The notes: generated by a model from the sequence alone, not told the origin. A stretch of DNA of 64,000 bases from Patescibacteria group bacterium (GCA_003504275.1 DOAO01000007.1:75535-139534), one strand, 5' to 3'. Positions 1 to 27,606 are shown, counted from the first letter of the stretch. A program made the numbers and translations.

Positions 1-453
1 AGACTCCTCAGAAACAAGAGTTTCTATATTTATGGAGATGGAAAACAGGAGAGAGCTTTTTCCTATATAGACGACACAATACCACCAATGATAAGAGCCG
101 CCTTTAGTAAAAAGTGCGAAGGGAAAACTATGAACGTCGGAGGAGAAGAAAATATTTCTTTAAACAAACTAGCAAAGGTGCTTTTGGAGGAATATTTTGG
201 AACAAAGAAAATTCCAAAAGAATTTATTCCCATACATCTTCCCGCAAGACCCCAAGAGGTTAAATACGCTTACTCTAATCACGACTTAGCCGGTAAATTA
301 ATGGGATTTAAGCCCAAGACATCGCTAAGCGAAGGACTCAAAGAAATGATAAAATGGGCGAAAGAAATTGGCCCCCAGGATTTTGTTTATTTGGAGGAGC
401 TCGATTTGGAGAACGATCTTGTGCCAAAGACCTGGAAAAATAAGCTTTTGTAA
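1..453 (+). CDS. NAD-dependent epimerase/dehydratase family protein, C-terminal part (5' end lies outside the window)
   Basis: Frame is open from base 1 with no stop until 451-453. C-terminal region looks like the SDR-type sugar epimerase family (YGDGKQERAFSYIDD...). Confidence 0.55.
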   Translation, partial: RLLRNKSFYIYGDGKQERAFSYIDDTIPPMIRAAFSKKCEGKTMNVGGEENISLNKLAKVLLEEYFGTKKIPKEFIPIHLPARPQEVKYAYSNHDLAGKLMGFKPKTSLSEGLKEMIKWAKEIGPQDFVYLEELDLENDLVPKTWKNKLL

Positions 454-455
454 AA

Positions 456-1121
456 ATGAATATATATAAAAATATAAAACTAGAAAGTTTCAGCTATGAT
501 TCTTATTGGAATGGAAGAGATTTTAATATTAGAAAGAAGCTTTTTGAAAGAGAAGAGATTTTTTCCGATTGGATAAAAGACAAGAGCAAGGTTCTTGACG
601 TTGCTGTCGGTAACTCATATCTCCCTATTTATCTAAAAGAGAAAAAGGGTTGCGATGTTACTGTTTATGATTTGGCGCAGAAGGTTATAGATGAATATAA
701 GAAATACGGAATCAGGGCCGAAGGTAAGAGTATATACGATACAGCTAATGAGAGGGGTGAGGTGTATGACTTTATAGTAATGAGTGAAATATTGGAGCAC
801 TTACCCATGCCGGAAGATGTAATCAAGAAAATGTCGGAACGTGCCGAATATCTTGTAATTTCTGTTCCCAATTCCGCTTTTTATCGTTTTAGAATACAGC
901 TTTTATTCGGTAGATTTTTTAAGCAGTGGATACACCACCCGTCTGAACACCTTCGTTTTTGGTCCCACGTTGATTTCTTAGATTGGCTACGTGCACTAGA
1001 GCTTGAAGTTGTAAAAACAGAGGCTTCCAACGGTCTAGATATTGGCCCCCTAAAACTATTCAAATATTTTCCTAATTTATTCGGACATCAAATGTGCTAT
1101 CTTGTTAAAAATAAAAAATGA
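456..1121 (+). CDS. class I SAM-dependent methyltransferase
   Basis: Motif I-like LDVAVGNSY plus the acidic post-motif signature (VMSEILEHLP) typical of Methyltransf_11/23 proteins. Confidence 0.55.
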   Translation: MNIYKNIKLESFSYDSYWNGRDFNIRKKLFEREEIFSDWIKDKSKVLDVAVGNSYLPIYLKEKKGCDVTVYDLAQKVIDEYKKYGIRAEGKSIYDTANERGEVYDFIVMSEILEHLPMPEDVIKKMSERAEYLVISVPNSAFYRFRIQLLFGRFFKQWIHHPSEHLRFWSHVDFLDWLRALELEVVKTEASNGLDIGPLKLFKYFPNLFGHQMCYLVKNKK

Positions 1122-1762
1122 GCATTTTTAAAAAATATTATAATAGAGATAATGCCGAGTACGGCTCAACCTCTTCCAGAATAAGGAAGATACTTTCATT
1201 TTTTGATGGGATAAAAGGCAAGAAAGTTTTGGATGTCGGTTGTGCGGGAGGGCATCTTGGCACAGAGATAAAAAAACTAGGAAATGAGGTTACCGGAATA
1301 GACATTTCAGATGTTTTGATTAAGGAGGCTGAAAAAGTTTTAGATAAGGCTATCGTCGTAGACGTACAAGAAGAAAATATTCCCTTCAACGAAGGGTATT
1401 TTGATATTGTTATTTTGTCGGAAGTAATAGAGCACCTCTTCTTTCCGGAGATTACTCTTGAAAAAATTAAAAATGTCTTGAAAAAAGACGGAAGGCTCAT
1501 TATTACCACTCCGAACTTACTGGTTTTTTCCAATAGAGTTAGAATATTTTTCGGAAATTTTGAATATACAGAGAAAGGGATTATTATTCCGGAACACATT
1601 CGTTTCTTTACGCATGATTCGCTGATTAAATTTTTAAACAAAAACGGTTTTGAAGTAGTGAGAGAAAATAATATTATTCATCCAAAAATACCAGAATTTT
1701 TGGGCAAGTTATTTCCAAATTTATTCACATACCAGATGGTTATTGAATTTAAATTTAAATAG
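1118..1762 (+). CDS. class I SAM-dependent methyltransferase
   Basis: VLDVGCAGGHLG (GxGxG motif I), D-I-S motif II, ILSEVIEHLFFPE. Overlaps the previous gene by 4 nt (operon). Confidence 0.65.
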   Translation: MSIFKKYYNRDNAEYGSTSSRIRKILSFFDGIKGKKVLDVGCAGGHLGTEIKKLGNEVTGIDISDVLIKEAEKVLDKAIVVDVQEENIPFNEGYFDIVILSEVIEHLFFPEITLEKIKNVLKKDGRLIITTPNLLVFSNRVRIFFGNFEYTEKGIIIPEHIRFFTHDSLIKFLNKNGFEVVRENNIIHPKIPEFLGKLFPNLFTYQMVIEFKFK

Positions 1763-1787
1763 CTATTAAGAATTATAATCTAAGGTA

Positions 1788-2765
1788 ATGTTAAAAATAG
1801 CGGTTATAAATCCTGGTATAGCAGACGGTTTGGCGAGGACCATACTTGATGGGCTCGTTTCTCTTACAAAAAGAGATTCTTCGGTGTCTTTTAAATATGC
1901 CAATACTTTTCCTTACGCCATAGAAGGTCTCGAGGAGAATCAAAGTAAAGACAAAAAAGATTTTATTGATTTTGCAAAAGAGGCTAATCTTATATTTTTT
2001 ATTTGGGCAAAAAGGGATATGGATATCGGTTTGGCAAATGAAATCGGTCTCTGGGATAAAACTATTTTTATAGACGGTTCTGAAATAGGTAAAAACGGAA
2101 GATATAATTTTGAAATTCAGCACAAGATAATAAAGGGAGAGTATTCTGGGAGCGGAAAAATTGACACAGAAATGCTCCATAAATGCCCACTTTATTTTAG
2201 AAGAGAAAAACCCTATAAGGATGGAATTGTTCCTTTTCCGTTTGGAATAGAGAGTCTTTATGTTAAAGATTTTTCTTTAAATACCCCCAAAGATATAGAT
2301 TTCTTTTGTGTTTTTGGACAAGATGAATATCCTTTAATGAGAAGATATTCCAGAGAAATTTTGATTGATTTCTGTAAGAAGAACGGATTTACATGTTTTA
2401 CAGAAAAAACAGATAGAGATAATTTTTATAGAACCCTTGCAAGATCAAAAGTCGGCATTTCTGTTGGTGGGGGAGGATATGACTGCATGCGTTTTTGGGA
2501 GATATTGGGTAATAATTGTCTGATGCTGACCGAAAAAATAGATATTTATGAACCTGATTCAAAAAAGCTTAAATATGATAGGATTTGGCAGTTCAACGAT
2601 CTTTTTGATTTTGAATATCAGTTAGAAAAAATGGGAGAATATTTGAGAAAAGAATACGACCAGTCTAAGTTAAAAGAAGAATATAGAAAGGTAATGTCTG
2701 AGCATTCATCCGAAGCCAGAGTTTTGGAGATTATTGAAAAGGCAAAAGAAATAAAATTATTATAA
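1788..2765 (+). CDS. putative glycosyltransferase (GT-B C-terminal-domain-like)
   Basis: C-terminal region (GISVGGGGYDCMRFWEILGNNCLML) looks like the Glyco_trans_1_2 type fold. Context is a glycosyltransferase operon. Confidence 0.35.
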   Translation: MLKIAVINPGIADGLARTILDGLVSLTKRDSSVSFKYANTFPYAIEGLEENQSKDKKDFIDFAKEANLIFFIWAKRDMDIGLANEIGLWDKTIFIDGSEIGKNGRYNFEIQHKIIKGEYSGSGKIDTEMLHKCPLYFRREKPYKDGIVPFPFGIESLYVKDFSLNTPKDIDFFCVFGQDEYPLMRRYSREILIDFCKKNGFTCFTEKTDRDNFYRTLARSKVGISVGGGGYDCMRFWEILGNNCLMLTEKIDIYEPDSKKLKYDRIWQFNDLFDFEYQLEKMGEYLRKEYDQSKLKEEYRKVMSEHSSEARVLEIIEKAKEIKLL

Positions 2766-2770
2766 TTTCA

Positions 2771-4480
2771 ATGAAGGAAGATAACCTTAAAAATGAATGT
2801 TCTGTTGTAGTCTCATCTTGCGACGCTTTTTCAGATGTTTGGGAGGCATTTTTTACATTATTTTTTAAATATTGGCCTGATTGTCCATTCCCCATTTATC
2901 TTATAAGCGAAACAAAGAAATATCCCGATAACAGGGTAACAACATTAAACATCGGAGAAGATAAAAAATGGGCCACTAACATTAAGAACGCCTTAAAAAG
3001 AGTTAATACTAAAAATATAATTTATTTACAGGAAGATTATTTGCTTGAAAGTAAAGTCAACACAGAAAAAATTATAAATTTGATTAAAATTTTGAGCGAT
3101 AGTGGTGCTGCTTATTTAAAACTCTGTCCATCTCCCGCACCCTATAGAAAGTTCGGCGAATATAAAGATATTGGTGAAATAAAAAAGGGTAGCAATTACA
3201 GCATTTCTTTGCAGGCTGCGATATGGAATAAAAAAATAATGGAGGGTTTGTTGATAGATGGAGAAAGCGGATGGGATATGGAGTTTAAAGGTAGCATTAG
3301 GACCGCGGATATCAAGGAGCCACTTCTTAGCGTTTATAGCAGTGTTTTGAATTATTTTTATGCAACTGCGATAAAGAAAGGGGTATGGTTTTATGATGCA
3401 ATAAAATTATGTGAGAAAGAGGGAATAAAAATAGATAAAACAAAAAGAAGAATTGAAACATTTAATCACTATGTTTTAAGAGTGACAAAATTTTTACACC
3501 TAAAGAATATATTAAAAATTTTCTTATTTAAGGTAAAGAGAAAGATGATTTTAATTAGCAGATTTTCATTCAATTTATATTTATTTTTCAAAAAAAGTAA
3601 ACAAATTAGCGATTTTTATGTAACAAGAAAGACTTTTTTTGAAAATTATGACCTTATAAACAAACAAGATATTTCAAAATTTATAACTCCCCATTGGCAC
3701 GATTTAAATAAAAAATATGAAAATTATCTAAGAATAAAAAACGTACCGGTAAATTTCTTAAGAGACAGGGTAATCGGATACACAATGTTTGTTTCTTCTG
3801 GTGGCGGTGCCATGAAGGCCGAATTAGATTTTTTAGAAAATAAATATTCTAAAGGAGATTTAGGTAAATATTTAGAAGAAGAAGCCGTCGGTTTCCCTAT
3901 AATATTGAGCAGGAAATATCTCTCCTCTCACAATAGTATCCGTCACCTATACCACATAAGTCGCTTTATTTTTAGGACCAATGTGGAAATAAATTCCATA
4001 AAGACGGTTGTTGAGTGGGGAGGAGGATATGGTAATTTTGCTAAAATATTTTTAAGACTTCAGGACAGTCCCCAAAAAACAACTTATGTGATAATAGACA
4101 CCCCACTATTTAGCTGTATTCAGTGGTTATATTTGTCCGTTGTTCTTGGCAAAGATAAGGTTAATTTTGTTAGAAGAGAAAATGATAAGATTGTCTCCGA
4201 AAAGATAAACATCATTCCCCTTGGTTTTGTTGAGAAGGTTAATCTTAAGCCGGATTTATTTGTTTCTACTTGGGCGCTAAGTGAAAGTTCGCCATTCTCT
4301 CAAGATTTTGTTTTAAACAAAAACTTTTTTGGAGCTAAGCATCTTTTGATTGGTTATCAGGAAAGTAACCCATCGCTACCTGATGCGGATAGAATAAATT
4401 TAATCGTTGATGAAAAGAGGAAAGATACAATAAAAGAGATAATAGATTTTATCCCGGGGAATTATTATGTATTTAAATAA
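2771..4480 (+). CDS. hypothetical two-domain protein: N-terminal GT-like domain, C-terminal putative sugar O-methyltransferase-like domain
   Basis: Continuous 569-aa ORF. The N-terminal ~230 aa are W/F-rich and GT-like. A low-complexity AT-rich linker follows. The C-terminus carries VVEWGGGYGNFAKIF (GxGxG SAM-binding-like). Confidence 0.35.
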   Translation: MKEDNLKNECSVVVSSCDAFSDVWEAFFTLFFKYWPDCPFPIYLISETKKYPDNRVTTLNIGEDKKWATNIKNALKRVNTKNIIYLQEDYLLESKVNTEKIINLIKILSDSGAAYLKLCPSPAPYRKFGEYKDIGEIKKGSNYSISLQAAIWNKKIMEGLLIDGESGWDMEFKGSIRTADIKEPLLSVYSSVLNYFYATAIKKGVWFYDAIKLCEKEGIKIDKTKRRIETFNHYVLRVTKFLHLKNILKIFLFKVKRKMILISRFSFNLYLFFKKSKQISDFYVTRKTFFENYDLINKQDISKFITPHWHDLNKKYENYLRIKNVPVNFLRDRVIGYTMFVSSGGGAMKAELDFLENKYSKGDLGKYLEEEAVGFPIILSRKYLSSHNSIRHLYHISRFIFRTNVEINSIKTVVEWGGGYGNFAKIFLRLQDSPQKTTYVIIDTPLFSCIQWLYLSVVLGKDKVNFVRRENDKIVSEKINIIPLGFVEKVNLKPDLFVSTWALSESSPFSQDFVLNKNFFGAKHLLIGYQESNPSLPDADRINLIVDEKRKDTIKEIIDFIPGNYYVFK

Positions 4481-4482: not shown

Positions 4483-5196
4483 ATGAAATTAATTAAAGAA
4501 ATAAAAAAATACCTAAGACCAGTTAAGAAATTATTTAGCACAGAGTACAAAAAGACTTATTCTCAAGCAGGAGAGGATATTATTGTTTCGGGCGCGTTAA
4601 AGGCCATGAAGATAGATAATGTTAGATATTTGGACATTGGAGCCCACCATCCTTCTTATTTGAGCAATACATATCTTTTTTATAAAAATGGCGGTAGTGG
4701 GGTTTGTATTGAGCCCGATCCATACTTGTTTAAAAATATACAGAAAAAAAGACCCAAAGATATTTGTCTTAATATTGGGATAGGAGTAAATACAGAGAGT
4801 GAGGCTGACTTTTATATTATGTCGGCAAGGACCTTAAATACTTTTTCAAAAAGTGAAGCTGAAAAAGTAAGTAGGGAAACTAAATATAAAATAGAATCTA
4901 AAATAAAAGTACCATTAAAACCTGTAAATGAGATAATTGGAGAATATTTTGAAACAACTCCCAATTTTATATCTTTAGACGTAGAGGGATTAGATATGGA
5001 AATATTAAAGTCTTTTGATTTTAATAAATACAGACCAGAAGTATTTTGTGTTGAAACAATAACTTTTACCGATGATAACTCGGGGGAGAAGGAGCAGGAT
5101 ATCATTGATTTTATGATACTTAAGGGTTATTTTGTTTTTGCCGATACACATATAAACACAATCTTTGTAGATAAAGATAAATGGATAAAGAAATAA
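4483..5196 (+). CDS. FkbM-family methyltransferase
   Basis: YLDIGAHHPSYLSNTYLFYKNGGSGVCIEPDP is characteristic of the FkbM methyltransferase domain. Confidence 0.55.
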   Translation: MKLIKEIKKYLRPVKKLFSTEYKKTYSQAGEDIIVSGALKAMKIDNVRYLDIGAHHPSYLSNTYLFYKNGGSGVCIEPDPYLFKNIQKKRPKDICLNIGIGVNTESEADFYIMSARTLNTFSKSEAEKVSRETKYKIESKIKVPLKPVNEIIGEYFETTPNFISLDVEGLDMEILKSFDFNKYRPEVFCVETITFTDDNSGEKEQDIIDFMILKGYFVFADTHINTIFVDKDKWIKK

Positions 5197-5855
5197 ATCA
5201 GAGATTTATAAATGTTAAGAATTCAAAGACCTTTAATAGGATTATCCGTCTTTTGGGACTTAATAATAAAAAAGTTTTTGATGTTGGGTGTGGATTCGGG
5301 GAGTATTTAGCTCTTTTTGGCAAGGGCAGTTTTGGTATTACATCTACAGAAGAAGAAGTGTTTGTTGCAAGGGAAAGGGGGCTTGATGTTTTTAAAACGA
5401 ATGCTGAGTTGATAAGCAGAGATAGCATAAAAAATGATTTTGGAGTCATTTGGGCTAATAATCTTTTTGAGCACCTTTTGTCTCCTCACTATTTTTTAAT
5501 GAGATTGAGATCTATTTCTGACAATGGTGCTATTTTGGTTTTAGGCGTTCCCGTTATACCGAAATTTGTTTCACTTCTAAGGTTGTCTCACTTTGGAGGT
5601 TCACTTGCGAGTAATCATATAAATTTTTTTACAAAGGAAACATTAAGACTAACAGTAGAGAGGTCTGGCTGGAGGGTAATAGAAGCGAGACCATATTTAA
5701 GCAAATTTAGAATATTTGATAGTATATTAAGTTTTTTTTCTCCTCATATTTATATTATTGCCAAGAAGGACCCTTTATTTAATTATCCCGAAAAGAAAGT
5801 ATTAGAGTGGGAAGGGGAAAGTTATTACGAAAATATTTTAGGGATGACAAAATAG
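5181..5855 (+). CDS. class I SAM-dependent methyltransferase
   Basis: VFDVGCGFGEYLALFG motif I. Overlaps the upstream gene. Confidence 0.5.
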   Translation: MDKEINQRFINVKNSKTFNRIIRLLGLNNKKVFDVGCGFGEYLALFGKGSFGITSTEEEVFVARERGLDVFKTNAELISRDSIKNDFGVIWANNLFEHLLSPHYFLMRLRSISDNGAILVLGVPVIPKFVSLLRLSHFGGSLASNHINFFTKETLRLTVERSGWRVIEARPYLSKFRIFDSILSFFSPHIYIIAKKDPLFNYPEKKVLEWEGESYYENILGMTK

Positions 5856-5857: not shown

Positions 5858-6979
5858 ATGAAAATATTGTATTTAGAAAACATAAGAATGCCGACAGACC
5901 GTGCACACGGTATTCAAATAATGAAGACCTGCGAAGCTCTTTCAAGGCTCGGTGTAGAAGTTGAATTGGTGGTTCCGACAAGAGAAAATAATATCAAAAA
6001 AGACCCCTTTCTTTACTACAAAGTAGAAAATAATTTTACTATCAAAAAAATATATTCGCCCGATCTTGTGAGATTCGGTAAAACTGGAGGAATTGTGCAA
6101 TATATATTTTTTTCTTTTGCCTCTCTTTTTTATGCTTTAAACCAAAAGGCTGACATTTTTTATTCCAGAGATGAATTACCTATTTGGTTTTTGGGCTTCT
6201 TTAATAAAAAAGTTTTTTGGGAAGTTCATAACGGTAAATGGAATTTTCTTGTTTCAAGTCTTATGAAGAGGTGTGCTGGGGTGGTTGCAATATCGGGTGG
6301 CATAAAGAATTTTTTTAAAGATAAAGGTGTTCTTGAGGAAAAAATAATAGTAGCGCCAGATGCAGTAGATATTGATGATTTTTATTTGAATATAAAAAAA
6401 GAGGAAGCGAGAGACAGGGTTAAGCTTCCTAAAAACAAGAAGATTGTTATGTATACGGGACATCTTTTTGAATGGAAGGGAGCTGATACAATCGGCCAGG
6501 TTGCCAAAAATTTTAGCAACGATTATCTTTTCGTTTTTGTTGGCGGAACAGAAAAACATATAGAAGATTTTAAAAAGAGACATCTTTTTGATAATAAAAT
6601 ATTAATGGTTGGTCAGAAGTCTCACGAGGAAATACCTCTTTATCTGAAGAGTGCAGATGTGCTAGTTATTCCCAATAGCGCGAAGGAAGATGTCTCGCGA
6701 TTATATACATCGCCGATGAAGCTTTTTGAGTATATGGCGAGCGGGACCCCAATCATTGCCTCAGACCTGCCTTCCATAAGGGAGATACTGGATGATGACG
6801 GCGCTGTTTTCTTTAAGTCAGATGATTCCGAGAGCCTAACTAAAGCGATTAAAAAAGTCTTTGATAATCAGACCTTGGCTGATAAAATGGCCAGTATCTC
6901 AAGGGAAAATTCCAAGAATTACTCTTGGGACAAAAGAGCTGAAAAAATAAACTCTTTTTTGTTAAAAAATGGAATTTAA
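5858..6979 (+). CDS. glycosyltransferase family 4 (GT-B)
   Basis: C-terminal EX7E-like region PMKLFEYMASGTPIIASDLPSIREIL. Start moved to the ATG at 5858 (MKILYLEN), immediately after the upstream stop, rather than the ORF-track start at 5807, which overlaps the previous gene. Confidence 0.7.
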   Translation: MKILYLENIRMPTDRAHGIQIMKTCEALSRLGVEVELVVPTRENNIKKDPFLYYKVENNFTIKKIYSPDLVRFGKTGGIVQYIFFSFASLFYALNQKADIFYSRDELPIWFLGFFNKKVFWEVHNGKWNFLVSSLMKRCAGVVAISGGIKNFFKDKGVLEEKIIVAPDAVDIDDFYLNIKKEEARDRVKLPKNKKIVMYTGHLFEWKGADTIGQVAKNFSNDYLFVFVGGTEKHIEDFKKRHLFDNKILMVGQKSHEEIPLYLKSADVLVIPNSAKEDVSRLYTSPMKLFEYMASGTPIIASDLPSIREILDDDGAVFFKSDDSESLTKAIKKVFDNQTLADKMASISRENSKNYSWDKRAEKINSFLLKNGI

Positions 6980-7397
6980 AGAAAATATAAATCTAATAAA
7001 CAAGAGGGCTCGTGACCTTTATCAAAATGCCATGTTTATTAAATCTATTTTAGTAGGCTTTGTCGCCCTAGCAGTAGATCTTTCTTTAATATTTATTTTT
7101 ACCGATGTGTTTTTGTGGAATTATTGGATATCTGCAAATATCGCATTCATAATTACTATTTTGGTTAATTTCCTGTTGCAAAAATTTTGGACTTTTGGCG
7201 ATAATGTCGTCCACAGAACGAAGGCTCAACTATTTAAATTTTTTACTCTCTCTTTATTAAATCTTTTTGCAAACAGTATTTTAATGTATGTATTTGTAAG
7301 TTTGTTTGGCATATGGTATTTATTAGCCCAGACGGTTATAACGGCAATACTTTTTTTGTTTAATTTTGTGGTTTATAGATTTTATATATTTGTTTAA
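6969..7397 (+). CDS. GtrA-family membrane protein (polyprenyl-phosphate sugar translocase-like)
   Basis: 142 aa with 4 TM segments. Carries the GtrA signature (NFLLQKFWTF). Confidence 0.6.
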   Translation: MEFKENINLINKRARDLYQNAMFIKSILVGFVALAVDLSLIFIFTDVFLWNYWISANIAFIITILVNFLLQKFWTFGDNVVHRTKAQLFKFFTLSLLNLFANSILMYVFVSLFGIWYLLAQTVITAILFLFNFVVYRFYIFV

Positions 7398-19359: not shown

Positions 19360-19368
19360 ATCTACTGT

Positions 19369-20748: not shown

Positions 20749-20751
20749 ATT

Positions 20752-21468
20752 TTATTTTTTATTACTCTCGAGAAGCTTCATTTTTTGTTCCGCAATAAAC
20801 CAGTCCTCTTCCGTATTTATATCTACGTTGTATTTGTCGTCCATTGTGAATAGTTCAACTTTTTCTCCATATAAATTAGGAACATCTTCATATAGATTTT
20901 TGGGTCTCAGTAGATAAATAATATCGTTTCTTGAGTAGCATTCTGGTAAATCTTGGCTTCTTGTTATTATTTTCTTAAGTGGTTCTCCTGTAAATAAGGT
21001 AACTTTGTCGTCTTTATCTTTTTTTAATATCCAATAGGGATTATTGTTTGCTGTTGCCCTAATAACAGAGACCACTGAATCTGGTTTTTTGTCCTCAAAT
21101 ATTTTTATTGCTTCATCTATCTGTTCCGTCGTTCTGGTTGGATTTGTGGGTTGTAGTAGTGCTATTAAGTCGGGTTGGTAATTTTGATTTTGCTTCAACC
21201 ATTCATATGCGTGTTTGAGGACAGGTTCTATTCCCATTTTGTCTCCTGATAGTTCCTCTGGTCTAATGAAAGGAACTTCGGCTCCATATTCTCTTGCTAT
21301 GTCTGCAATTTTAACGTCGTCGGTTGAGACGATAACTCTATCTAATTTGCTCTTAATGGCACTCTCTATAGACCATGCAATAAGTGGCTTATTTAATAAA
21401 ATCTTTTCATTTTTATGAGGAATTCTTCTTGAGCCACCCCTTGCTGGTATTACAGCTAATATTTTCAT
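20752..21468 (-). CDS. neuA: acylneuraminate (nonulosonic acid) cytidylyltransferase, CMP-NulO synthetase
   Basis: MKILAVIPARGGSRRIPHKN is the CMP-NeuAc / CMP-Pse / CMP-Leg synthetase N-terminus. Confidence 0.75.
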   Translation of the reverse strand: MKILAVIPARGGSRRIPHKNEKILLNKPLIAWSIESAIKSKLDRVIVSTDDVKIADIAREYGAEVPFIRPEELSGDKMGIEPVLKHAYEWLKQNQNYQPDLIALLQPTNPTRTTEQIDEAIKIFEDKKPDSVVSVIRATANNNPYWILKKDKDDKVTLFTGEPLKKIITRSQDLPECYSRNDIIYLLRPKNLYEDVPNLYGEKVELFTMDDKYNVDINTEEDWFIAEQKMKLLESNKK

Positions 21469-21509
21469 ATTTTTTATGATATATTAAATCATTATTATCT
21501 TCAAACTAT

Positions 21510-22451
21510 ATGGAAATCAAATATTGGAAAATAGAGGACGGCATTAGAAAGGAAATAGAGGATCATTACAGAACCAGACTTGCTCTTTCTCTGAAGGAAC
21601 AAAGTGCAATAGAGATTGTTAAAGAGATAACTTTTGATAATGTCGCCCCAAATTTAAATGTGAAGGAGGTTGATAGTCTTATTTCTTTTGTTAACAAAAA
21701 TTTTTTAGAAGAGAAATTGGAAGGTGTCGGGCTAGAGGTCGGCGCAGGATGCGGATTTTTCAGCGCTGTTTTTGCTAAAGAAGCTACTGTAAAAAAGGTT
21801 TATGCCCTAGAGATAGTGGAGAATATTGTAAAAGAACTGATGCCTAAGGTCGTTGAATCTGTCGCGGGTAAAAATAGTAATAAAGTTGTTGGATGTGTGG
21901 GGGAGTTTAATAATATAGAATTACCTAATAATTCTGTTGATTTTGTATTCGATTTTTATTCACTACACCATTCTAATAATCTGGAAAAAACTTTTAGAGA
22001 ATTATTTAGGGTTTTAAAACCAGGGGGTTTTGTTTTGTGTTTTGACAAAGCCAGGAGCAATTCACTTAGCAGGGAACAATTAGACGGCCTTTTAGATAAG
22101 GAATATCCACGCGAAGCAAAAATTAACATGGGTATAGATCCTTCCGCTATTCATACACGAAGAATGAACGGAGAATATGAGTATAGGCTTAAAGATTGGG
22201 AAAAGGCTTTTTTGGATTCAGGTTTTAATAATTTTTATCACTATCATTTGGCTAGAATGGGCTCGGGCGGTGTTTTTTCTCGGATATACAAAAAGATGAT
22301 TTCAATTTTTCCTATAAAGTTACAAATATTTATAAATAACCTTTTATTGAGAAATAAGAAGGTTAATAATTTAGATGTTTCTAATGTTATCTACACTCGC
22401 TTAGTAGATAATATGCCAAAAGAAATTTCGCTGATGATGGTTTATAAATAA
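21510..22451 (+). CDS. class I SAM-dependent methyltransferase
   Basis: GLEVGAGCGFFS motif I and LKPGGFVLCFD. Confidence 0.55.
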   Translation: MEIKYWKIEDGIRKEIEDHYRTRLALSLKEQSAIEIVKEITFDNVAPNLNVKEVDSLISFVNKNFLEEKLEGVGLEVGAGCGFFSAVFAKEATVKKVYALEIVENIVKELMPKVVESVAGKNSNKVVGCVGEFNNIELPNNSVDFVFDFYSLHHSNNLEKTFRELFRVLKPGGFVLCFDKARSNSLSREQLDGLLDKEYPREAKINMGIDPSAIHTRRMNGEYEYRLKDWEKAFLDSGFNNFYHYHLARMGSGGVFSRIYKKMISIFPIKLQIFINNLLLRNKKVNNLDVSNVIYTRLVDNMPKEISLMMVYK

Positions 22452-22476
22452 AAAAAGACCACAATTTCTTGTGGTC
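22450..22476 (-). terminator. rho-independent terminator for the minus-strand radical SAM gene
   Basis: Hairpin GACCACAA-TTTC-TTGTGGTC. On the minus strand it is followed by a T6 run. Confidence 0.55.
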
Positions 22477-22483
22477 CTGTCTG

Positions 22484-24139
22484 CTACATATTTAGAATAT
22501 CTTCTATTCTCCCATTGTCTATTTTTTTTCTTGCCTCCAGAAAAATTTCGTTAGACATTTCGCTGAAGTTAAGTGGTTCTCCATTCTTGTCCAATAATAC
22601 TTTTGTTGCATCATCCAGTTCAAGAACATAATTTTGAAGCTTGTCGTCGAAAATCAGCTCTCTTTTATTGCTGAATTTTATTTCAAAATGCTTGTTAAGA
22701 ATCTTTGTGACATGGGGGTCGCTAAACATCCTTGTTCCAGGATAAGCCGTCGCAGTAAACATCTTTTTATTAATTGAGCCAACTGCAATTTTATGAGACT
22801 CTGTGCCTGGAGTTAATTCTTTAGAGACATTTTCTATCTGCCACAGTATGAAAGAAACACTCTTCTTTAAGTCATTAAGTGTTTCTCCTGGGTAACCCAT
22901 TATCCAAGTGCAGTTTGAATGTATTCCGTAAATTAGGCAGTTGTTTATTCCCTCAATCATTGTTCTTGGGAATTCAAAATCATAACCAGGTATTTTAATC
23001 ATACCTTTTTTGAGTATAAATCCACCCTTCCCCATTTTCTCTAGTATTTTTTTACTCGCACTTTCTGCGCCAAAACCTATATAAATGCACCCAGAGTCAG
23101 CCATATCCTTAAGTCTTTCGTCGGCCTCATCTATTCTTGTGTGCGTTCCCCAGCGAAGTTCAATTTCTTTGAATAATAGGGGTAGCAATTTTAATCTTTT
23201 TGTATCAACGGCAAAATTGTCGTCAGGATACCCAAGAAAATCTATTGCATATTTATCCTTAAGTATTTTTGCCTCCTGAAAAAGATTTTCAGCGCTTCTC
23301 ATTCTGTAATTTCTCTCCCCCTGAGAACCACGATAACAAAAAGCACAGTTGTATGGACAACCTCGGCTACTGACCGTAGTAAGACTTTTTTTCATTGTAA
23401 ATGGTGTAGCAGAACTATTATTCGCTGACCCACCCCAAACTGGAGTGTCAATGTACCAATCAAGGAGTCTATTACCAAAAACATCTACTTCAAGTAAATC
23501 TAGCGCAGGAAGGGGTAAAGAATTAAGGTCTTTGGGTCTGCTACCGGGGTATAAGAAGCGATGCCTACCATTAATTTTACCAAAATAGAAAGGAGAATTA
23601 AGGTTACGATCAAAATTATTAAACGCCCCATTTTTCTTGAGATCCAAAATCTCTTTAGCGATTACCAGGATAATATCGTCTCCCTCTGAGTGCCCGATAG
23701 CATCAATGTCATTTATCCAATTAAAGAGTTCGCCACGGATTTCGGTTGCAAGTCCTCCTCCAGAAATCATAAATGATTGTGGACTCGTTTTTCTACAAAT
23801 ATTGGCCACAATTTTTTGCCATCTTAGCGTTGTAATCATTCCAGAGAGGGCGATAATGTCTGGTTCGCCAAATTTATTGAAATGGCTTTCCAGGAGAAAT
23901 TTCACCTCATTCTCTGTGAGGTGTCTTCCCAAAGAAGCTCTTTTGGCTTCCGATAATTCATCAATTATACGATAGGCGTTAAGATCAACAATAGAAACAT
24001 CCGCTCCGTGGCTTCTAAGTCTGGATGCGAGTAATAGTGGTCCTTGTGGTGGTACATTTGGCCTAGCCATCTCCCTTAATGGCATATTAATGAAAACAAC
24101 ATTCAAACCTCTTAGTTCAGAAAATTCTTTTATGATCAT
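22484..24139 (-). CDS. B12-binding domain-containing radical SAM protein
   Basis: N-terminal cobalamin-binding Rossmann-like region. Radical SAM CxxxCxxC = CPYNCAFC. Confidence 0.7.
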   Translation of the reverse strand: MIIKEFSELRGLNVVFINMPLREMARPNVPPQGPLLLASRLRSHGADVSIVDLNAYRIIDELSEAKRASLGRHLTENEVKFLLESHFNKFGEPDIIALSGMITTLRWQKIVANICRKTSPQSFMISGGGLATEIRGELFNWINDIDAIGHSEGDDIILVIAKEILDLKKNGAFNNFDRNLNSPFYFGKINGRHRFLYPGSRPKDLNSLPLPALDLLEVDVFGNRLLDWYIDTPVWGGSANNSSATPFTMKKSLTTVSSRGCPYNCAFCYRGSQGERNYRMRSAENLFQEAKILKDKYAIDFLGYPDDNFAVDTKRLKLLPLLFKEIELRWGTHTRIDEADERLKDMADSGCIYIGFGAESASKKILEKMGKGGFILKKGMIKIPGYDFEFPRTMIEGINNCLIYGIHSNCTWIMGYPGETLNDLKKSVSFILWQIENVSKELTPGTESHKIAVGSINKKMFTATAYPGTRMFSDPHVTKILNKHFEIKFSNKRELIFDDKLQNYVLELDDATKVLLDKNGEPLNFSEMSNEIFLEARKKIDNGRIEDILNM

Positions 24140-24320
24140 ATTACCCCTCCTCTTCTTTATTTTAAGTTTTCAAAGTTCAGACTATTTTAAATTATAAAAG
24201 CACATAAATGGTATTTTTACAATAGCAACATAACAATTAAGATAGAAGATTATTCAATAATCGTGTTTAGATAATAGATGTGCCCAGTTTTTCTTATCTT
24301 ATGCCGAATAATAATTAAAA

Positions 24321-24342
24321 GCCGACTCTTGTGAGAGTCGGC
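24321..24342. terminator. hairpin terminator downstream of the small radical SAM gene
   Basis: GCCGACTCT-TGTGA-GAGTCGGC with A/T runs on both sides. Confidence 0.5.
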
Positions 24343-24350
24343 AAAATTTT

Positions 24351-25154
24351 TTATGTGGAAGTGGGTACGCCCCAGAATTCACATTTAGCGCAAAGGGGAA
24401 TTCCTGCTCTTTTTCCTTGCTTATGGAGTTCGAGCCACTCAAGTCTCTGTTTACCATTCCATATCTCGGCTAGGGTATTTTCATTTACATTGCCTATGAC
24501 TCCGAGATGGTTTGGGTCGAATCTGACACAGATTGAGACATCTCCTGTAATACTGATGCAAAGATGGCTAAGAAAGTCGAGACATATTCCTATTTCCGGT
24601 ATTGTGGGATTTTTTTTCTGATACTTGAAACTTCCCATTGGATGATGTAGAACCCTCTTTACCATAAGAAGTCCAAGGTGTTCATACCCCTTAGGATCAA
24701 TTTCCCCGATGAGACGAAGGTTCGTAAACGGTTTTCTATTTCCTTTTATTTTTACGAATTCTTCGATTATTTTGAGCTGTTCTTCTGCTTCGGTGTCCCC
24801 TTCAAATATTGAAATAGACATCGTATCGAGGTTGTCAATTATCTCGTCGGCTTTTTTGATGAGCAGTTTTCCGTTGGTTGTAATGCTTTTAATTTGTCTT
24901 GTAAATAATTTTAAGGCGTCGCCAAATCTGGGATAGAGTAGACCTTCTCCGTCTTTGTGAAATTGAACCACAATGTTTGAAGGAAGTTGCTCTGCTATTT
25001 TACGCAGTATTTCAAAGTCGGCGTCACCATATTTAAGCGTAAGTTCCGGAAAATCCTTTTCTACTTTTCTTCTGCCACACATCCAACATTTTTTGTTGCA
25101 CCTATTTGTGAGCTCAACATTGACGCAGTTAAGACCAAAAAGCCCTTTTTCCAT
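24351..25154 (-). CDS. radical SAM protein with C-terminal Cys-rich (SPASM/twitch-like) region
   Basis: CNKKCWMC (CX3CX2C) near the N-terminus. C-terminal CxxxxxxC...CAKCEFWG. Confidence 0.65.
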   Translation of the reverse strand: MEKGLFGLNCVNVELTNRCNKKCWMCGRRKVEKDFPELTLKYGDADFEILRKIAEQLPSNIVVQFHKDGEGLLYPRFGDALKLFTRQIKSITTNGKLLIKKADEIIDNLDTMSISIFEGDTEAEEQLKIIEEFVKIKGNRKPFTNLRLIGEIDPKGYEHLGLLMVKRVLHHPMGSFKYQKKNPTIPEIGICLDFLSHLCISITGDVSICVRFDPNHLGVIGNVNENTLAEIWNGKQRLEWLELHKQGKRAGIPLCAKCEFWGVPTST

Positions 25155-25161
25155 ATTTATT

Positions 25162-25170
25162 CCCCCCCCC
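25162..25170. repeat. homopolymeric tract C9 on plus (G9 on minus) forming the RBS of the radical SAM gene
   Basis: On the minus strand: AAGGGGGGGGGAATAAATATG. Nine G ending 7 nt before the start codon, in a very AT-rich genome. Confidence 0.6.
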
Positions 25171-25323
25171 TTATTTTCAAAGTCCTAAGTTGACAAAAGA
25201 TTAACATCTTATTAATTATTTGTCAAAAAATAAAAATGATTTTCGTTGACGCTACTTTATTAATGTGATATCTTCATTCTTAGGTCTTGGAACTTTTACA
25301 ATAAAAAAGAAGGGGGAGATATT

Positions 25324-26187
25324 ATGGCTATTAAGATTGGAAACAGGCTTGTGGGCCTCGGTCACCCGTGTTTCATTATCGGAGAAATAGGCATCAATCA
25401 CAATGGTGATGTTGCTGTCGCCAAAAGGCTTATCGAGGTTGCTAAGAATGCTGGATGTGACGCAGTTAAGTTCCAGAAAAGAACAATTGATATCGTCTAC
25501 CGGCCCGAAGAACTGGCTATGCCAAGGGAAAATCTTTTTGGTAAAACGAATGGCGATCTCAAGCGCGGACTCGAATTCGGTCAGAAAGAATATGAAGAGA
25601 TTGATCGTTATTGTAAGGAAATCGGCATCATATGGTTCGCTTCTCCGTGGGACGAGGACAGTGTTGATTTTCTCGAACAGTTTAATCCGCCCTGCTATAA
25701 AGTAGCTTCCGCTAGTTTGACTGATAGCGGTCTTTTGTCTCATATTAAGACGAAAGGAAGGCCGATTATCTTATCGACAGGCATGAGCACAATGAAGGAA
25801 ATCGAGTACGCATTCAAGGTTCTGGGAAAGGAAAATTTAATAATTCTTCACACCGTTTCCACCTATCCTTCAGAAAATGACGAGTGCAATCTCGCTGTTA
25901 TGGGAACTCTCAAGAACAAATTTAAAGATGTTCCTATTGGATATAGCGGACACGAGAGGGGTATTGTAATTTCTGTAGCGGCTGTTGCACTCGGTGCTTG
26001 TGTTATAGAGAGACATATTACCCTTGATCGCGCAATGTGGGGTTCTGATCAGGCGGCGAGTATTGAGCCAAAAGGTCTCGAACTTTTGGTCCGCGATATT
26101 CGTATGGTCGAGACAGCTATTGGAAGTCCCGAGAAAAAAGTTTACGAAAAAGAGATAGCGATAAAGAAGAAACTCCGCAGAAAATAA
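25324..26187 (+). CDS. neuB: N-acetylneuraminate synthase family (NeuB/PseI/LegI-like nonulosonic acid synthase), short form without obvious SAF domain
   Basis: FIIGEIGINHNGDVAVAKRLIEVAKNAGCDAVKFQKRT is the NeuB N-terminus. 287 aa. Strong SD GGGGGAG upstream. Confidence 0.75.
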   Translation: MAIKIGNRLVGLGHPCFIIGEIGINHNGDVAVAKRLIEVAKNAGCDAVKFQKRTIDIVYRPEELAMPRENLFGKTNGDLKRGLEFGQKEYEEIDRYCKEIGIIWFASPWDEDSVDFLEQFNPPCYKVASASLTDSGLLSHIKTKGRPIILSTGMSTMKEIEYAFKVLGKENLIILHTVSTYPSENDECNLAVMGTLKNKFKDVPIGYSGHERGIVISVAAVALGACVIERHITLDRAMWGSDQAASIEPKGLELLVRDIRMVETAIGSPEKKVYEKEIAIKKKLRRK

Positions 26188-26206
26188 ACAAAAAAGTTTT
26201 TACTTA

Positions 26207-26236
26207 AAAGGGCGAACAAATGTTCGCCCTTTATTT
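26207..26236. terminator. bidirectional rho-independent terminator between convergent neuB and the flippase gene
   Basis: AAAGGGCGAACA-AATG-TTCGCCCTTT followed by TATTTTTTAAATTTTT. Confidence 0.6.
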
Positions 26237-26237
26237 T

Positions 26238-27488
26238 TTAAATTTTTCTAAGTGTATAGAAATTAAGAATAAGATTTATAAAACCGTTTAATATTTCTGC
26301 GGCTACTGCTCCGGCTAATCCCCAGATGGGTAGTAGTATCAGTTTGAGAATTAATAATATAGTAGGATTAATAACAGATAAAAAATAATTTATTTTTTTT
26401 CCACCATGAGCTGTAATTGCAATACTCAGTGGTTTTTTGGAATAAGTTAGCAGAGTAAGGGCTAAGAACTGTGAATATATTATAGCCTCATTATATTGAG
26501 GAAAGAATATATTATAAAAATAAGGTATCAATAAAATATAAAGAACAGTAGGAATTATCATTAGCAGGGTGATTTTTAGAGACTTGATTGGAAGCGTCTT
26601 TTTTAAATCCTCAATACTTCTGGATGCTATTTTGGGAATAAGCAGGGAGTTTGATGTTTTTAGCATTGATGCAACTTGATCTACCGGGGCGGAGGCGAAG
26701 GCATAGATAGCCAGTGGTGTGGCTCCCAGGTAATGGAAAACAAGGATTTTGTCTATATTACTGCTTATCATCCCTAATATACCCATTAAGCTGAGGTGTT
26801 TTCCATATTTTATTGCCCCTTTTTCAACATCATGATTTGGTTTATATTTGCTGACGGTAACGAAATAGTAAAAGGTTACCATTATTGCATTTGATAAAAA
26901 ATAAGACCCGACAACATAGACGGGACTGCCAGTTAGCAAGATGGTGACAATCATTACAGCATTTGTGAACAAGCCGGAAGTTACACCATACGTTGTGGAG
27001 GTTTTGAATTCTTTTTTTCCCGTTAGAAATGCTCCATAAAGACTAAGGTTTGTCGTTATTGGCGACAATAGAGCGGGAAAGAGAAGGGAGATACCTAGGG
27101 TATAGTTTTGATTTAAAAAATAATAGGCAGAGATAGCTAACGATATTGATGTGGGAATGAAGCTCCACTTAAAACCTGTTTTAATCGCGGCATACATAGT
27201 ACCTTCAAACCCTCGGGAAACTGATTGGGCTACAATAGTTCCAAGTCCTGTCAGATAGAAGGCACTCGTTATTCCCGCTAAAGACATAATATATTTGTAG
27301 CTTCCATATGAATCTTTTGGGAAGTAGTTTGCAAAAACGAGAGACATTATGAATGTCCCAATCATAGATACACCAAAACCGGAACCAAGCCAAAAACCGC
27401 CCTTAGCGAAATAGACCAGGTCGGTTTTTAAATATCTTCCACCTAGTTTAAGCCATTCAAATACCTTTATCTTTATTTTTTTCAGCAT
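26238..27488 (-). CDS. oligosaccharide flippase (Wzx/MOP superfamily polysaccharide biosynthesis protein)
   Basis: 416 aa, ~12 TM helices, general MOP flippase architecture. Confidence 0.6.
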   Translation of the reverse strand: MLKKIKIKVFEWLKLGGRYLKTDLVYFAKGGFWLGSGFGVSMIGTFIMSLVFANYFPKDSYGSYKYIMSLAGITSAFYLTGLGTIVAQSVSRGFEGTMYAAIKTGFKWSFIPTSISLAISAYYFLNQNYTLGISLLFPALLSPITTNLSLYGAFLTGKKEFKTSTTYGVTSGLFTNAVMIVTILLTGSPVYVVGSYFLSNAIMVTFYYFVTVSKYKPNHDVEKGAIKYGKHLSLMGILGMISSNIDKILVFHYLGATPLAIYAFASAPVDQVASMLKTSNSLLIPKIASRSIEDLKKTLPIKSLKITLLMIIPTVLYILLIPYFYNIFFPQYNEAIIYSQFLALTLLTYSKKPLSIAITAHGGKKINYFLSVINPTILLILKLILLPIWGLAGAVAAEILNGFINLILNFYTLRKI

Positions 27489-27606
27489 CTTAACAATTTT
27501 AGACTATTTGTCGTCCTTTTGATAGAGTTACCGTTATTGAAACTATTGTTTGTGTTATTTGGTTACAAATACACCCTATTAAATAAAATTTAAAATTAAA
27601 TAATAT

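Follow-up and report, generated by a model that had tools for sequence, protein, structure and literature searches.

A methyltransferase-rich, probable surface-glycan locus of a Patescibacteria genome and its predicted GT-C-fold membrane protein of an undescribed family

What does a bacterial gene cluster make when about ten S-adenosylmethionine (SAM)-dependent methyltransferase (MT) domains are packed among its glycosyltransferases (GTs), and do these MTs serve the same pathway? The question is raised by a 64,000-nucleotide stretch of DNA (the window, in what follows) from Parcubacteria group bacterium GW2011_GWF2_38_76, an uncultured groundwater member of the Candidate Phyla Radiation (CPR). 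Proteins of the region are 100% identical to the entries UT05_C0002G0068, G0078, and G0079. Genes for SecA, IF-2, ClpB, peptide deformylase, and four tRNAs mark the window as bacterial, and its GC content is ~30–41%. A preliminary description of the window had proposed a heavily methylated or otherwise decorated surface glycan, and its remark on an episymbiotic lifestyle fits the CPR affiliation of the source organism. The GT4, GT2, GtrA, pyruvyl transferase, flippase, nonulosonic-acid genes, and GT-C-like membrane protein that it listed are all present. Its title lacked two AsnB-type amidotransferases (8547, 16569) and two radical-SAM genes (22484, 24351).

The window probably contains a surface-glycan biosynthesis locus with two coupled routes, one for a Wzx/Wzy_C-dependent oligosaccharide and the other formed by a GtrA/GT2/GT-C module. 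This kind of system, a Wzx/Wzy_C glycan locus joined to a three-component side-branch system, is already known. Three features are new: an extremely high MT load, with roughly one MT domain for each GT domain, a GT-A/O-MT fusion, and a GT-C family, large and CPR-associated, whose conserved partner is a membrane-anchored MT. The GT-C family, which is described by no current profile library, is the chief new element of the locus.

The preliminary description had placed a 27-kb island at positions 1–27500. A glycan island does exist there, but it is larger, ~35 kb, and extends on both sides. Coordinates outside the window were obtained from the 162.7-kb metagenome scaffold L001, which carries the same genes and on which window position 1 corresponds to position 7231. 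The locus runs from L001 4499 to window position 32304, the end of the Wzy_C-TPR gene (30112–32304). It thus starts ~2.7 kb upstream of the window, and this stretch adds two more GT4 genes and the 5' part of an epimerase gene. GroES/GroEL and NYN-domain genes bracket the locus on the upstream side, and secA (at 33406) lies downstream. Positions 1–20748 hold 20 co-directional genes. Of their 19 junctions, 5 are overlaps, 13 leave no more than 25 nt between the genes, and one leaves 195 nt; the gene overlaps reported earlier are therefore real. Above the Pfam thresholds are 9 MTs, 3 GTs, GtrA, 2 AsnB homologues, pyruvyl transferase, NeuB, cytidylyltransferase, Wzx, and Wzy_C. Of the 26 genes in the first 27.5 kb, 10 have an MT domain; of the 23 genes scanned with Pfam elsewhere in the window, none does. 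This enrichment exceeds chance (Fisher one-sided p = 6.5e-4).

Nine open reading frames (ORFs) had been named as class-I MTs (456, 1118, 4483, 5181, 10427, 11199, 11779, 18418, and 21510), together with an O-MT-like domain at 2771. All nine are present and carry a Pfam class-I MT domain above the gathering score, with 39.9–85.4 bits against cutoffs of 21–30 (models Methyltransf_23/11/12/25/31, and the FkbM model Methyltransf_21 for 4483); with the 2771 domain, the count of ten is correct. The MT genes are:

456–1121, plus strand: class-I SAM MT, MetW/Methyltransf_23-like (PF13489 54.5 bits, cutoff 27; PF07021 54.6 bits; MetW equivalog 53.7 against 189.5)
1118–1762, plus strand: class-I SAM MT (PF13489 85.4 bits, PF08241 67.3 bits; UbiG 71 against 102.95), 4-nt overlap with the preceding gene
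2771–4480, plus strand: fusion of 569 aa, GT-A glycosyltransferase (~1–250) and NanM-like sugar O-MT (~255–569), assigned by AlphaFold 2 (AF2), Foldseek, and TIGR04371
4483–5196, plus strand: FkbM-family MT, Methyltransf_21 (PF05050 76 bits, cutoff 22.7; TIGR01444 48.3 bits, cutoff 37.7)
5181–5855, plus strand: class-I SAM MT (PF13489 40.6 bits, cutoff 27), with a 42%-identical orthologue in the CPR locus L007
10427–11194, plus strand: class-I SAM MT (PF08241 63.8 bits; CmoB 48 against 209)
11199–11777, plus strand: short class-I SAM MT with one C-terminal hydrophobic segment at ~147 (PF08241 39.9 bits)
11779–12468, plus strand: membrane-anchored class-I SAM MT with a C-terminal hydrophobic hairpin, the conserved GT-C partner (PF08241 47.1 bits)
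18418–19359, plus strand: class-I SAM MT with an N-terminal CxxC...CxxC segment (PF13489 53 bits)
21510–22451, plus strand: class-I SAM MT (PF08241 60.3 bits; UbiE/MenG-type matches far below cutoffs)

The glycine-rich SAM motif I is kept as DVGCAGG, DVGCGFG, DAGCGMG, LGAGE, IGSGP, DIGCAEG, VGAGCG, and, in the FkbM protein, DIGAHH; the C-terminal domain of 2771 has EWGGGYG, and the most degenerate form, DVAVGNS, is that of 456. The MTs are 23–34% identical to one another and appear to be old paralogues rather than recent duplicates. Three of them (5181, 11199, and 11779) have clear orthologues (36–64% identity) in other CPR glycan loci, as in L004, where a 64%-identical orthologue of 11199 occupies the same position; the remaining MTs have only distant relatives there.

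The product of 2771 has no Pfam match. Its AF2 model has a mean predicted local distance difference test score (pLDDT) of 93, and in Foldseek searches the N-terminal ~250 residues match the GT-A enzymes SpsA, TarS, TarP, B4GALNT1, and WrtF, while the C-terminal half matches the O-MTs Plu4890, DnrK, and BchU. The C-terminal ~320 residues also fit TIGR04371, 'putative sugar O-methyltransferase' (E 4.7e-10), with 39.4 bits, just under the 44-bit cutoff. More than 100 standalone homologues of this half were found, several labelled 'putative sugar O-methyltransferase', and the N-terminal domain is elsewhere fused to FkbM, GT1, GtrA, or MT_11 domains. As modelled, the 2771 product is a glycosyltransferase-methyltransferase fusion. 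The gene upstream of it encodes another candidate transferase:

1788–2765, plus strand: conserved CPR protein, GT-B-like putative glycosyltransferase (weak PF13524, Glyco_trans_1_2, 19.3 bits, below the cutoff of 25)

This protein has 321 homologues, the best 120 of them at 49–70% identity; among the homologues are proteins with PF13524 and one entry labelled glycosyltransferase. Homologues of 1788 and 2771 share contigs in other samples (e.g., contigs of 12,494 bp and 21,854 bp), which suggests that the GT-B-like protein and the GT-A/O-MT fusion may be a conserved pair.

The second part of the answer concerns three genes that, with the membrane-anchored MT 11779, could form a module of their own:

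6969–7397, plus strand: GtrA-family small membrane protein, putative polyprenyl-phosphate-sugar flippase (PF04138 75.3 bits, cutoff 26.1; four hydrophobic segments)
7404–8351, plus strand: GT2 polyprenyl-phosphate glycosyltransferase, ArnC/GtrB/PgfS-like (PF00535 117.3 bits)
12458–14254, plus strand: GT-C-fold membrane glycosyltransferase of an undescribed CPR family, ~600 aa, by predicted fold

The 7404 protein, which has C-terminal hydrophobic segments at ~238–290, aligns end to end with ArnC (NF007986, E 2e-59) and PgfS (1.5e-45). Both matches are below the equivalog cutoffs, and its sugar is therefore not assignable. The protein encoded at 12458–14254 (12458 being the gene start, which differs from that given previously) has no Pfam or NCBIfam match. 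Thirty members of its family show no consistent Pfam match even at E <= 1, and a search of the family profile against PDB sequences found nothing. By sequence it matches none of the described GT-C families (PMT, STT3/PglB, ArnT, YfhO, GtrC types, Emb/Aft, GT136, and others; Pfam, NCBIfam, PDB). The assignment comes from the AlphaFold model (pLDDT 89.7; predicted template modelling score, pTM, 0.91), for which Foldseek returned PglB, STT3, DPY19, AftA, and ArnT (E 2.5e-6 to 1e-3). The top fold matches include protein O-mannosyltransferases (PMTs) and oligosaccharyltransferases (OSTs), with AftA and ArnT scoring nearly as high. Conserved acidic residues in the first loop are a known trait of GT-C enzymes. 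In this family E56, D68, E80, and E93, in the loop after the first transmembrane helix, are acidic in 77–80 of 81 members, and R186 and H360 are near-invariant.

The family is large. An exhaustive profile search gave 2,176 representatives of 50%-identity clusters at E <= 1e-3 and 744 at E <= 1e-30. A scan of GTDB species representatives, seeded with patterns from CPR sequences, returned 79 loci, nearly all of them with titles of Patescibacteria lineages (Kaiser-, Falkow-, Uhr-, Taylor-, Lloyd-, Nomura-, Giovannoni-, Yanofsky-, Komeili-, Magasanik-, Peregrini-, Berkelbacteria, and 'Parcubacteria group'). Restriction of the family to Patescibacteria among the GTDB hits is thus indicated rather than proven, the seed patterns themselves being CPR-derived; some third-party assemblies among the GT-C loci are labelled 'uncultured Gammaproteobacteria' or 'Saccharibacteria'. 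Two members, P0159 and P0247, are natural GtrA-GT-C fusions, in which PF04138 lies above threshold at residues 16–136 and the GT-C profile covers 159–731 and 167–748, respectively. These fusions tie the GT-C family to GtrA-type handling of polyprenyl-phosphate sugars. Their N-terminal extensions had been expected to be MT domains, an idea that was rejected when they proved to be GtrA domains.

The GT-C gene and the 11779 MT gene also travel together. They are the only two window genes with clear full-length homologues in at least four of five metagenome loci; all five have the GT-C, and the MT matches over its full length in four of them and over part of it in L007 (44% coverage). A hidden Markov model was built from 11779 orthologues, which are 36–39% identical, align over the full length, and each have the C-terminal hydrophobic hairpin; its scores are bimodal. 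Across 85 GT-C loci, an orthologue of the 11779 type lies directly upstream of the GT-C gene on the same strand in 35, is adjacent but divergent in 8, and is found elsewhere within 10 kb in 16. Taken together, 43 of the 85 loci have it beside the GT-C gene, and 59 have it within 10 kb. Identity of the GT-C proteins among the compared loci is only 29–46%. In the 84 GT-C loci compared for other genes, a full-length ArnC/GtrB-like GT2 occurs in 42, AsnB homologues in 30, and a Wzy_C-type gene (by phmmer) and a cytidylyltransferase in 13 each.

Is the MT density peculiar to the window? At least one class-I MT was found by single-round phmmer in 70 of the 73 loci of 12 kb or more, with a median of ~1.4 per 10 kb. 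The highest count among the other loci is 7 in 21.8 kb (L080), against 8 in the window by the same count, plus its FkbM and NanM-like domains. These counts come from the first phmmer round only and are lower bounds. A second round was discarded because it drifted via GT2-MT and dehydrogenase fusions and drew in 7404 and 28959. The counts for other loci are also underestimates in that single-sequence phmmer missed FkbM and NanM-like MTs elsewhere, though Pfam shows FkbM in L005, L008, and L009. Pfam annotation gives 7 MT genes in L004 and 7–8 in L007. These CPR genomes have MT-rich glycan loci in common; the window comes out highest but is not unique. The density called unusual in the preliminary description does head the range, but it is the extreme of a trait common among CPR loci with the same GT-C family.

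The remaining genes of the locus that bear on the proposed pathway are:

1–453, plus strand: NAD-dependent sugar epimerase/dehydratase, 3' end of a 345-aa protein (Pfam Epimerase/GDP_Man_Dehyd; complete at L001 6646–7683)
5858–6979, plus strand: GT4 glycosyltransferase, 373 aa (PF00534 89.5 bits, PF13439 34.9 bits)
8547–10415, plus strand: AsnB-type glutamine-dependent amidotransferase 1 (PF00733 337.5 bits, GATase_6/7; TIGR01536 507 bits, cutoff 267)
14263–15399, plus strand: GT4 glycosyltransferase (PF00534 106.1 bits, PF13439 67.7 bits)
15419–16558, plus strand: polysaccharide pyruvyl transferase (PF04230 93 bits, cutoff 25.3)
16569–18425, plus strand: AsnB-type glutamine-dependent amidotransferase 2 (PF00733 162 bits, GATase_7 150 bits), 32% identical to copy 1
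19369–20748, plus strand: TagB/BFO_1060-like GT-B protein, candidate nonulosonic-acid transferase (PF04464 35.3 bits, cutoff 22.1)
20752–21468, minus strand: PseF/NeuA-like ulosonic-acid cytidylyltransferase, forming the cytidine monophosphate (CMP) derivative (PF02348 89.5 bits; TIGR03584 PseF 166.3 against 205.7)
22484–24139, minus strand: radical-SAM enzyme with a weak B12-binding domain (PF04055 71.7 bits; CxxxCxxC at 261–268)
24351–25154, minus strand: radical-SAM/SPASM protein (PF13186 44.8 bits, PF04055 33.5 bits; CxxxCxxC at 19–26)
25324–26187, plus strand: NeuB-family nonulosonic-acid synthase, 287 aa, without SAF domain (PF03102 272.7 bits)
26238–27488, minus strand: MOP-family (Wzx-like) flippase (PF13440 43.6 bits, PF01943 35.2 bits, both above cutoff)
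30112–32304, plus strand: Wzy_C membrane protein of the O-antigen ligase, polymerase, or O-oligosaccharyltransferase (O-OTase) type with C-terminal TPR repeats (PF04932 64.5 bits, cutoff 31.7; weak TPR; ~11 hydrophobic segments)

The first GT4 gene probably starts at 5858 and not, as given earlier, at 5807. The epimerase/dehydratase has its best NCBIfam matches in LegB-like, GalE, and RmlB models, all under cutoffs, and the pyruvyl transferase does not reach the cutoff of the CsaB equivalog TIGR03609 (93.4 against 213.1). Both AsnB homologues begin with MCGI, so the Cys nucleophile is intact in each. The 19369 protein has an HP motif at 297 and DVD at 268, no D/E-D/E-G motif was found in it, and its gene adjoins the cytidylyltransferase gene; it matches the BFO_1060 family NF046086 with E 5.5e-12 and 45.5 bits against a cutoff of 200. 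BFO_1060 is the pseudaminic/legionaminic-acid (Pse/Leg) transferase of Tannerella forsythia (PMC5420450). In two other CPR loci (L004 12445–13962, L008 13892–15385) NeuB and CTP_transf_3 are paired with a Capsule_synth (KpsC/KpsS-type) protein in place of the TagB-like 19369, and the NeuB of L008 carries a fused cupin domain; the differing partners imply that the ulosonic-acid module varies between lineages. The nearest NCBIfam families of 22484 are P- and C-methyltransferases, far under cutoffs, and the protein is possibly a class-B (cobalamin-dependent) radical methylase. Radical-SAM genes of the B12-binding type recur in CPR glycan loci (L008 1558–3087, L009 1131–2648), between NTP_transferase and GT2 genes. 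Such an enzyme is of note because CPR organisms are not expected to make cobalamin. A Wzy_C-TPR homologue is present in L005, where a Bac_transf gene follows it.

Given the observed gene content, folds, operon packing, conserved linkage, and fusion proteins, we infer the order of steps, the substrates, and the position and number of methyl groups as follows. Route 1 is read from domain content. At the cytoplasmic face, soluble transferases of the GT4, GT-A, and GT-B-like kinds would build a polyprenyl-linked oligosaccharide, whose sugars would be tailored while lipid-linked or as nucleotide sugars. Up to ~10 SAM MTs, one fused to its own glycosyltransferase, would methylate them (O-, possibly N- or C-); the two AsnB-type enzymes would turn carboxyls into amides or form amidino groups; the pyruvyl transferase would add ketal pyruvate; and the two radical-SAM enzymes would also act, one possibly as a cobalamin-dependent C-methylase. 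A nine-carbon ulosonic acid, supplied in CMP-activated form by NeuB and the PseF-like cytidylyltransferase, may be attached as a cap by the BFO_1060/TagB-like transferase. The Wzx-type flippase would then export the chain, and the Wzy_C-TPR protein would polymerise it or ligate it to the final acceptor.

Route 2 is better supported. Here the ArnC/GtrB-like GT2 would charge polyprenyl phosphate with a single sugar, GtrA would aid its translocation, and the CPR GT-C would transfer the sugar extracytoplasmically to glycan or protein. The membrane-anchored MT 11779 would most likely methylate the lipid-linked donor or a lipid-linked acceptor at the cytoplasmic face before export, because SAM is available only on that side. 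Tailoring of lipid-linked donors has precedents in ArnD, DprE1/E2, and the ORF13 epimerase of GT136 systems (PMC11127046), and three-component systems that combine such tailoring with a sequence-orphan GT-C (GT136) have been described (PMC11127046).

Several observations weigh against this two-route scheme. No 11779-type MT was found near the GT-C gene in 26 of the 85 loci (one with a short flank), and GtrA occurs in just 17 of 84. Neither the scanned genes of the window nor the 7 kb upstream of it yielded an initiating phosphoglycosyl transferase (Bac_transf or WecA/MraY-type, Glycos_transf_4). The locus does not encode a full nonulosonic-acid pathway, as it has no NeuC, no equivalent of PseB/C/H/G or LegB/C/H/G, and no sugar aminotransferase, acetyltransferase, or hydrolysing epimerase. 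Moreover, the NeuB-family protein stays below the equivalog cutoffs (TIGR03569 270 bits against 399.65; PseI 221.6 against 340.25), as does the cytidylyltransferase. The B12-binding domain of 22484 scores 19.4 bits with PF02310, below the cutoff of 32.1. The nearest PDB relatives of the MTs are structural-genomics 'putative methyltransferases' or unrelated small-molecule MTs; in PDB sequence searches 1118 and 10427 retrieved generic MTs only, so that no substrate can be assigned to them, and 19369, 1788, and 4483 retrieved nothing useful. The substrate specificity of an MT cannot be read from sequence for any of them.

How does the locus compare with characterised systems? Its closest analogue in gene content is the 27-kb S-layer O-glycan cluster of T. 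forsythia, which comprises wzx, CMP-Pse genes, a BFO_1060-type transferase, 5 glycosyltransferase (Gtf) genes, 3 methyltransferase (Mtf) genes, asnB, and wecC (PMC6120980, PMC5420450). The two are alike in size and polycistronic layout, and share a Wzx flippase, nonulosonic-acid synthesis with CMP activation, a TagB-like transferase (in the CPR locus a candidate that resembles the BFO_1060 family), several Gtfs, several class-I Mtfs, an AsnB-type amidotransferase, and a nucleotide-sugar dehydrogenase. In contrast to the T. forsythia cluster, the CPR locus has ~10 MT domains rather than 3 and lacks a complete pseBCHGI or leg pathway; the GtrA/GT2/GT-C module, the pyruvyl transferase, the two radical-SAM enzymes, and the second AsnB homologue are extra. 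In addition, 19369 reaches only 45 bits against the 200-bit family cutoff, and the host is a monoderm-like CPR bacterium.

The module itself resembles the three-component systems (GtrA/GtrB/GtrC-type, ArnC/ArnT, and GT136 pentofuranose) in bringing together a polyprenyl-phosphate GT2 with C-terminal membrane helices, GtrA, and a GT-C-fold protein, and the CPR GT-C, like GT136, is a sequence orphan recognisable by fold only (PMC11127046). It differs in that its GT-C falls in no described family and that the partner is a membrane-anchored SAM MT, not an epimerase or deformylase. Pmt/Ppm1 O-mannosylation (fungi, Actinobacteria) and the Pgf system of S. mutans offer a further likeness: the GT2 resembles Dol-P/Und-P (dolichol/undecaprenyl phosphate)-hexose synthases, including PgfS, and the acidic residues of the first extracytoplasmic loop are conserved. 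Unlike the PMT families, the CPR GT-C has no sequence homology to them and no MIR domain, and its C-terminal soluble domain is different. In the Agl N-glycosylation of Haloferax volcanii (AglJ/AglP/AglS), the SAM MT AglP modifies the lipid-linked glycan on the cytoplasmic side, and a separately charged Dol-P-sugar is added after flipping; that pathway is archaeal and dolichol-based, with a single MT and the AglB oligosaccharyltransferase. AglJ is among the NCBIfam matches of 7404, with no orthology beyond GT2. The flagellin islands of Campylobacter and Helicobacter also cluster a nonulosonic-acid synthase, a CMP-transferase, and tailoring enzymes (amidino formation, methylation), as this locus does. 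Unlike those islands, the CPR locus has no flagellin and no Maf-family transferases, and it has many more GTs and MTs, which points to an oligo- or polysaccharide rather than single-sugar decoration.

Could the MTs have nothing to do with a glycan? The preliminary description had held that it would fail if profile searches revealed housekeeping rRNA, tRNA, or ubiquinone MTs. The generic class-I domains do give weak cross-matches to UbiG, CmoB, PrmA, MetW, and RlmA models, yet all are below curated cutoffs, and no MT reaches the cutoff of a housekeeping equivalog in NCBIfam (UbiG, UbiE/MenG, MetW, PrmA, CmoB, RlmA, BioC); the nearest case is 1118 with UbiG (71 against 102.95 bits), and the others are 2- to 10-fold below. 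With the genes packed among glycosyltransferases and in places overlapping them, one MT domain fused to a GT, another MT a conserved GT-C neighbour in dozens of genomes, and at least one MT in 70 of 73 comparable CPR loci, it is scarcely credible that unrelated rRNA, tRNA, quinone, or protein MTs lie here by chance. The proposal of a heavily methylated or decorated glycan is thus well supported: the MTs are non-housekeeping, are packed among GTs, and in three cases have orthologues in other CPR glycan loci. An embedded tailoring cluster for a small molecule or for a ribosomally synthesised and post-translationally modified peptide (RiPP), spanning 16569–25154 with its AsnB homologue, MTs, and B12-type and SPASM radical-SAM genes, is very improbable as well. 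It is suggested by cross-matches of the AsnB homologues to a lasso-peptide cyclase model (232–253 bits) and of the radical-SAM proteins to RiPP maturases and C-methyltransferases; all of these are far below cutoffs. In both AsnB homologues the GATase domains are complete and the glutaminase nucleophile (MCGI) is retained. Neither a precursor peptide nor a protease or exporter was seen; the genes of the supposed cluster are interspersed with those for the cytidylyltransferase, NeuB, and the flippase, and their B12-type radical-SAM member recurs beside NTP_transferase and GT2 in other CPR glycan loci. The RiPP reading of the AsnB and radical-SAM genes was therefore rejected.

The surface-glycan reading leaves two acceptors, protein and polysaccharide, of about equal standing on the sequence evidence; each is a real possibility that falls short of an even chance. 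Protein O-glycosylation, which would be a special case of the surface-glycan reading, would have the Wzy_C-TPR protein act as an O-oligosaccharyltransferase en bloc, or a PMT-like GT-C add single (methyl)sugars, or both, on S-layer, pilin, or other surface proteins. The resemblance to the T. forsythia cluster speaks for it, as do the PgfS-like 7404 GT2 (PgfS belongs to the S. mutans protein-glycosylation pathway), the PMTs and OSTs among the top folds of the GT-C, and the 1389-aa beta-helix/LTD surface protein encoded at 46952–51121. To our knowledge, CPR cells have no lipopolysaccharide (the canonical WaaL acceptor), which was counted on the same side. The Wzy_C domain, common to the O-OTases PglL and PilO and to WaaL, is present, but it also occurs in polymerases and ligases; its weak NCBIfam match is a repeat-unit polymerase model, and neither a diagnostic O-oligosaccharyltransferase feature nor a PglL-specific domain match was found. 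AftA and ArnT are nearly as good fold matches as the PMTs, the 64 kb contain no pilin gene or prepilin signal motif, and no S-layer or SLH gene is among their Pfam-scanned ORFs. A cell-wall polysaccharide or capsule (a secondary cell wall polymer, teichuronic-like), with repeats polymerised by the Wzy_C-TPR protein, the pyruvate ketal as anchor or charge, and no protein glycosylated, would instead explain the CsaB-like pyruvyl transferase, the TagB/F-like Glyphos_transf domain, and GT4s whose best matches are TuaC/TuaH/EpsE-like. Wzx and Wzy_C are the classical repeat-unit polymerisation pair, and AsnB-type amidotransferases are common in O-antigen and exopolysaccharide loci, their best NCBIfam match here being an exopolysaccharide-associated amidotransferase. 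This polymer would nevertheless have no LCP-family ligase, chain-length regulator, or SLH-domain protein in the window, its pyruvyl transferase falls short of the CsaB cutoff (93 against 213 bits), and a terminal nonulosonic acid with about one MT per sugar would be more typical of defined oligosaccharides.

Further features accompany the locus. Past the flippase gene, two of them interrupt the glycan genes or may have been affected by the interruption:

27607–28966, plus strand: probable mobile or selfish insert with small GIY-YIG and RhuM-Fic proteins (PF01541 59.3 bits, PF13310 81.2 bits, PF02661 44.9 bits)
28959–29834, plus strand: nucleotide-sugar dehydrogenase-like, 291 aa, without C-terminal domain (PF00984 67.5 bits, PF03721 57.8 bits; TIGR03026 141 against 189.8)

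Two small standalone GIY-YIG proteins of 85 and 101 aa, 59% identical and encoded on the same strand, lie just past the flippase (27607–27864) and at the upstream locus edge (L001 4228–4533). Repeats that might mark the boundaries of a mobile island were sought, and only the coding similarity of the two GIY-YIG genes (69% over 143 nt) was found, without flanking direct repeats. The RhuM-Fic/DOC fusion of 337 aa (27953–28966) lies between glycan genes and resembles cargo of a mobile or toxin type; its gene shares 8 nt with the start of the one that follows. The dehydrogenase-like protein 28959 keeps the central domain and an intact N-terminal Rossmann motif, and the neighbourhood showed none of the fragments that it lacks. 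It may be functional in this short form or be what a truncation left, e.g., a pseudogene that the GIY-YIG/RhuM-Fic insert split. A stretch of ~1.1 kb (32305–33405) that separates the Wzy_C-TPR gene from secA has no long ORFs and no Rfam match at the gathering score; within it lies a 39-aa lysine-rich ORF at 33130–33249 (...KKKAKKVVKKAVKKVAKKKVAKKKK). The predicted surface protein of 1389 aa at 46952–51121 carries lamin-tail (LTD), right-handed beta-helix/NosD, and peptidoglycan-binding domains; it may be an adhesin or a glycoprotein target. A 23S rRNA intervening-sequence protein gene and the IF-2 gene are found at 37480–37941 and 39289–40791, respectively, the IF-2 being unusually short (500 aa).

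A broader proposal, which we put forward only tentatively and hold rather unlikely, is that the predicted GT-C founds a new CAZy-level family, almost exclusive to Patescibacteria, and that together with the membrane MT, the GtrB-like GT2, and GtrA it makes up a four-part system. Such a system would methylate a polyprenyl-phosphate-linked sugar on the cytoplasmic side and deliver the methyl-sugar to the surface, where the acceptor could be proteins, in a PMT-like manner. If true, this would be the first case of methylation as tailoring of a lipid-linked monosaccharide donor, and a lineage-wide surface signature of episymbiotic ultra-small bacteria. A literature search on CPR, Patescibacteria, or Saccharibacteria with nonulosonic or pseudaminic acid, O-antigen ligase, or S-layer/polysaccharide biosynthesis found nothing relevant, which is weak evidence of absence, as the search covered few subscription journals. 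The 85-locus comparison defines two testable units, the GT-C family (at least 744 clusters at 50% identity, E <= 1e-30) and the linked membrane MT; either could be produced in a heterologous host, with no need for a culture of the source bacterium.

Most CPR/Patescibacteria have not been cultured; their metabolism is minimal, and a life attached to host cells is presumed for them. Surface chemistry is therefore probably central to host recognition and phage evasion in these organisms. Here, a genome with very little biosynthetic capacity devotes ~35 kb, with roughly one MT for each sugar, to what is probably a heavily tailored glycan. Sugars that are methylated, amidated, and pyruvylated would make this glycan hydrophobic or zwitterionic and antigenically distinctive, properties that would be relevant to adhesion between episymbiont and host.

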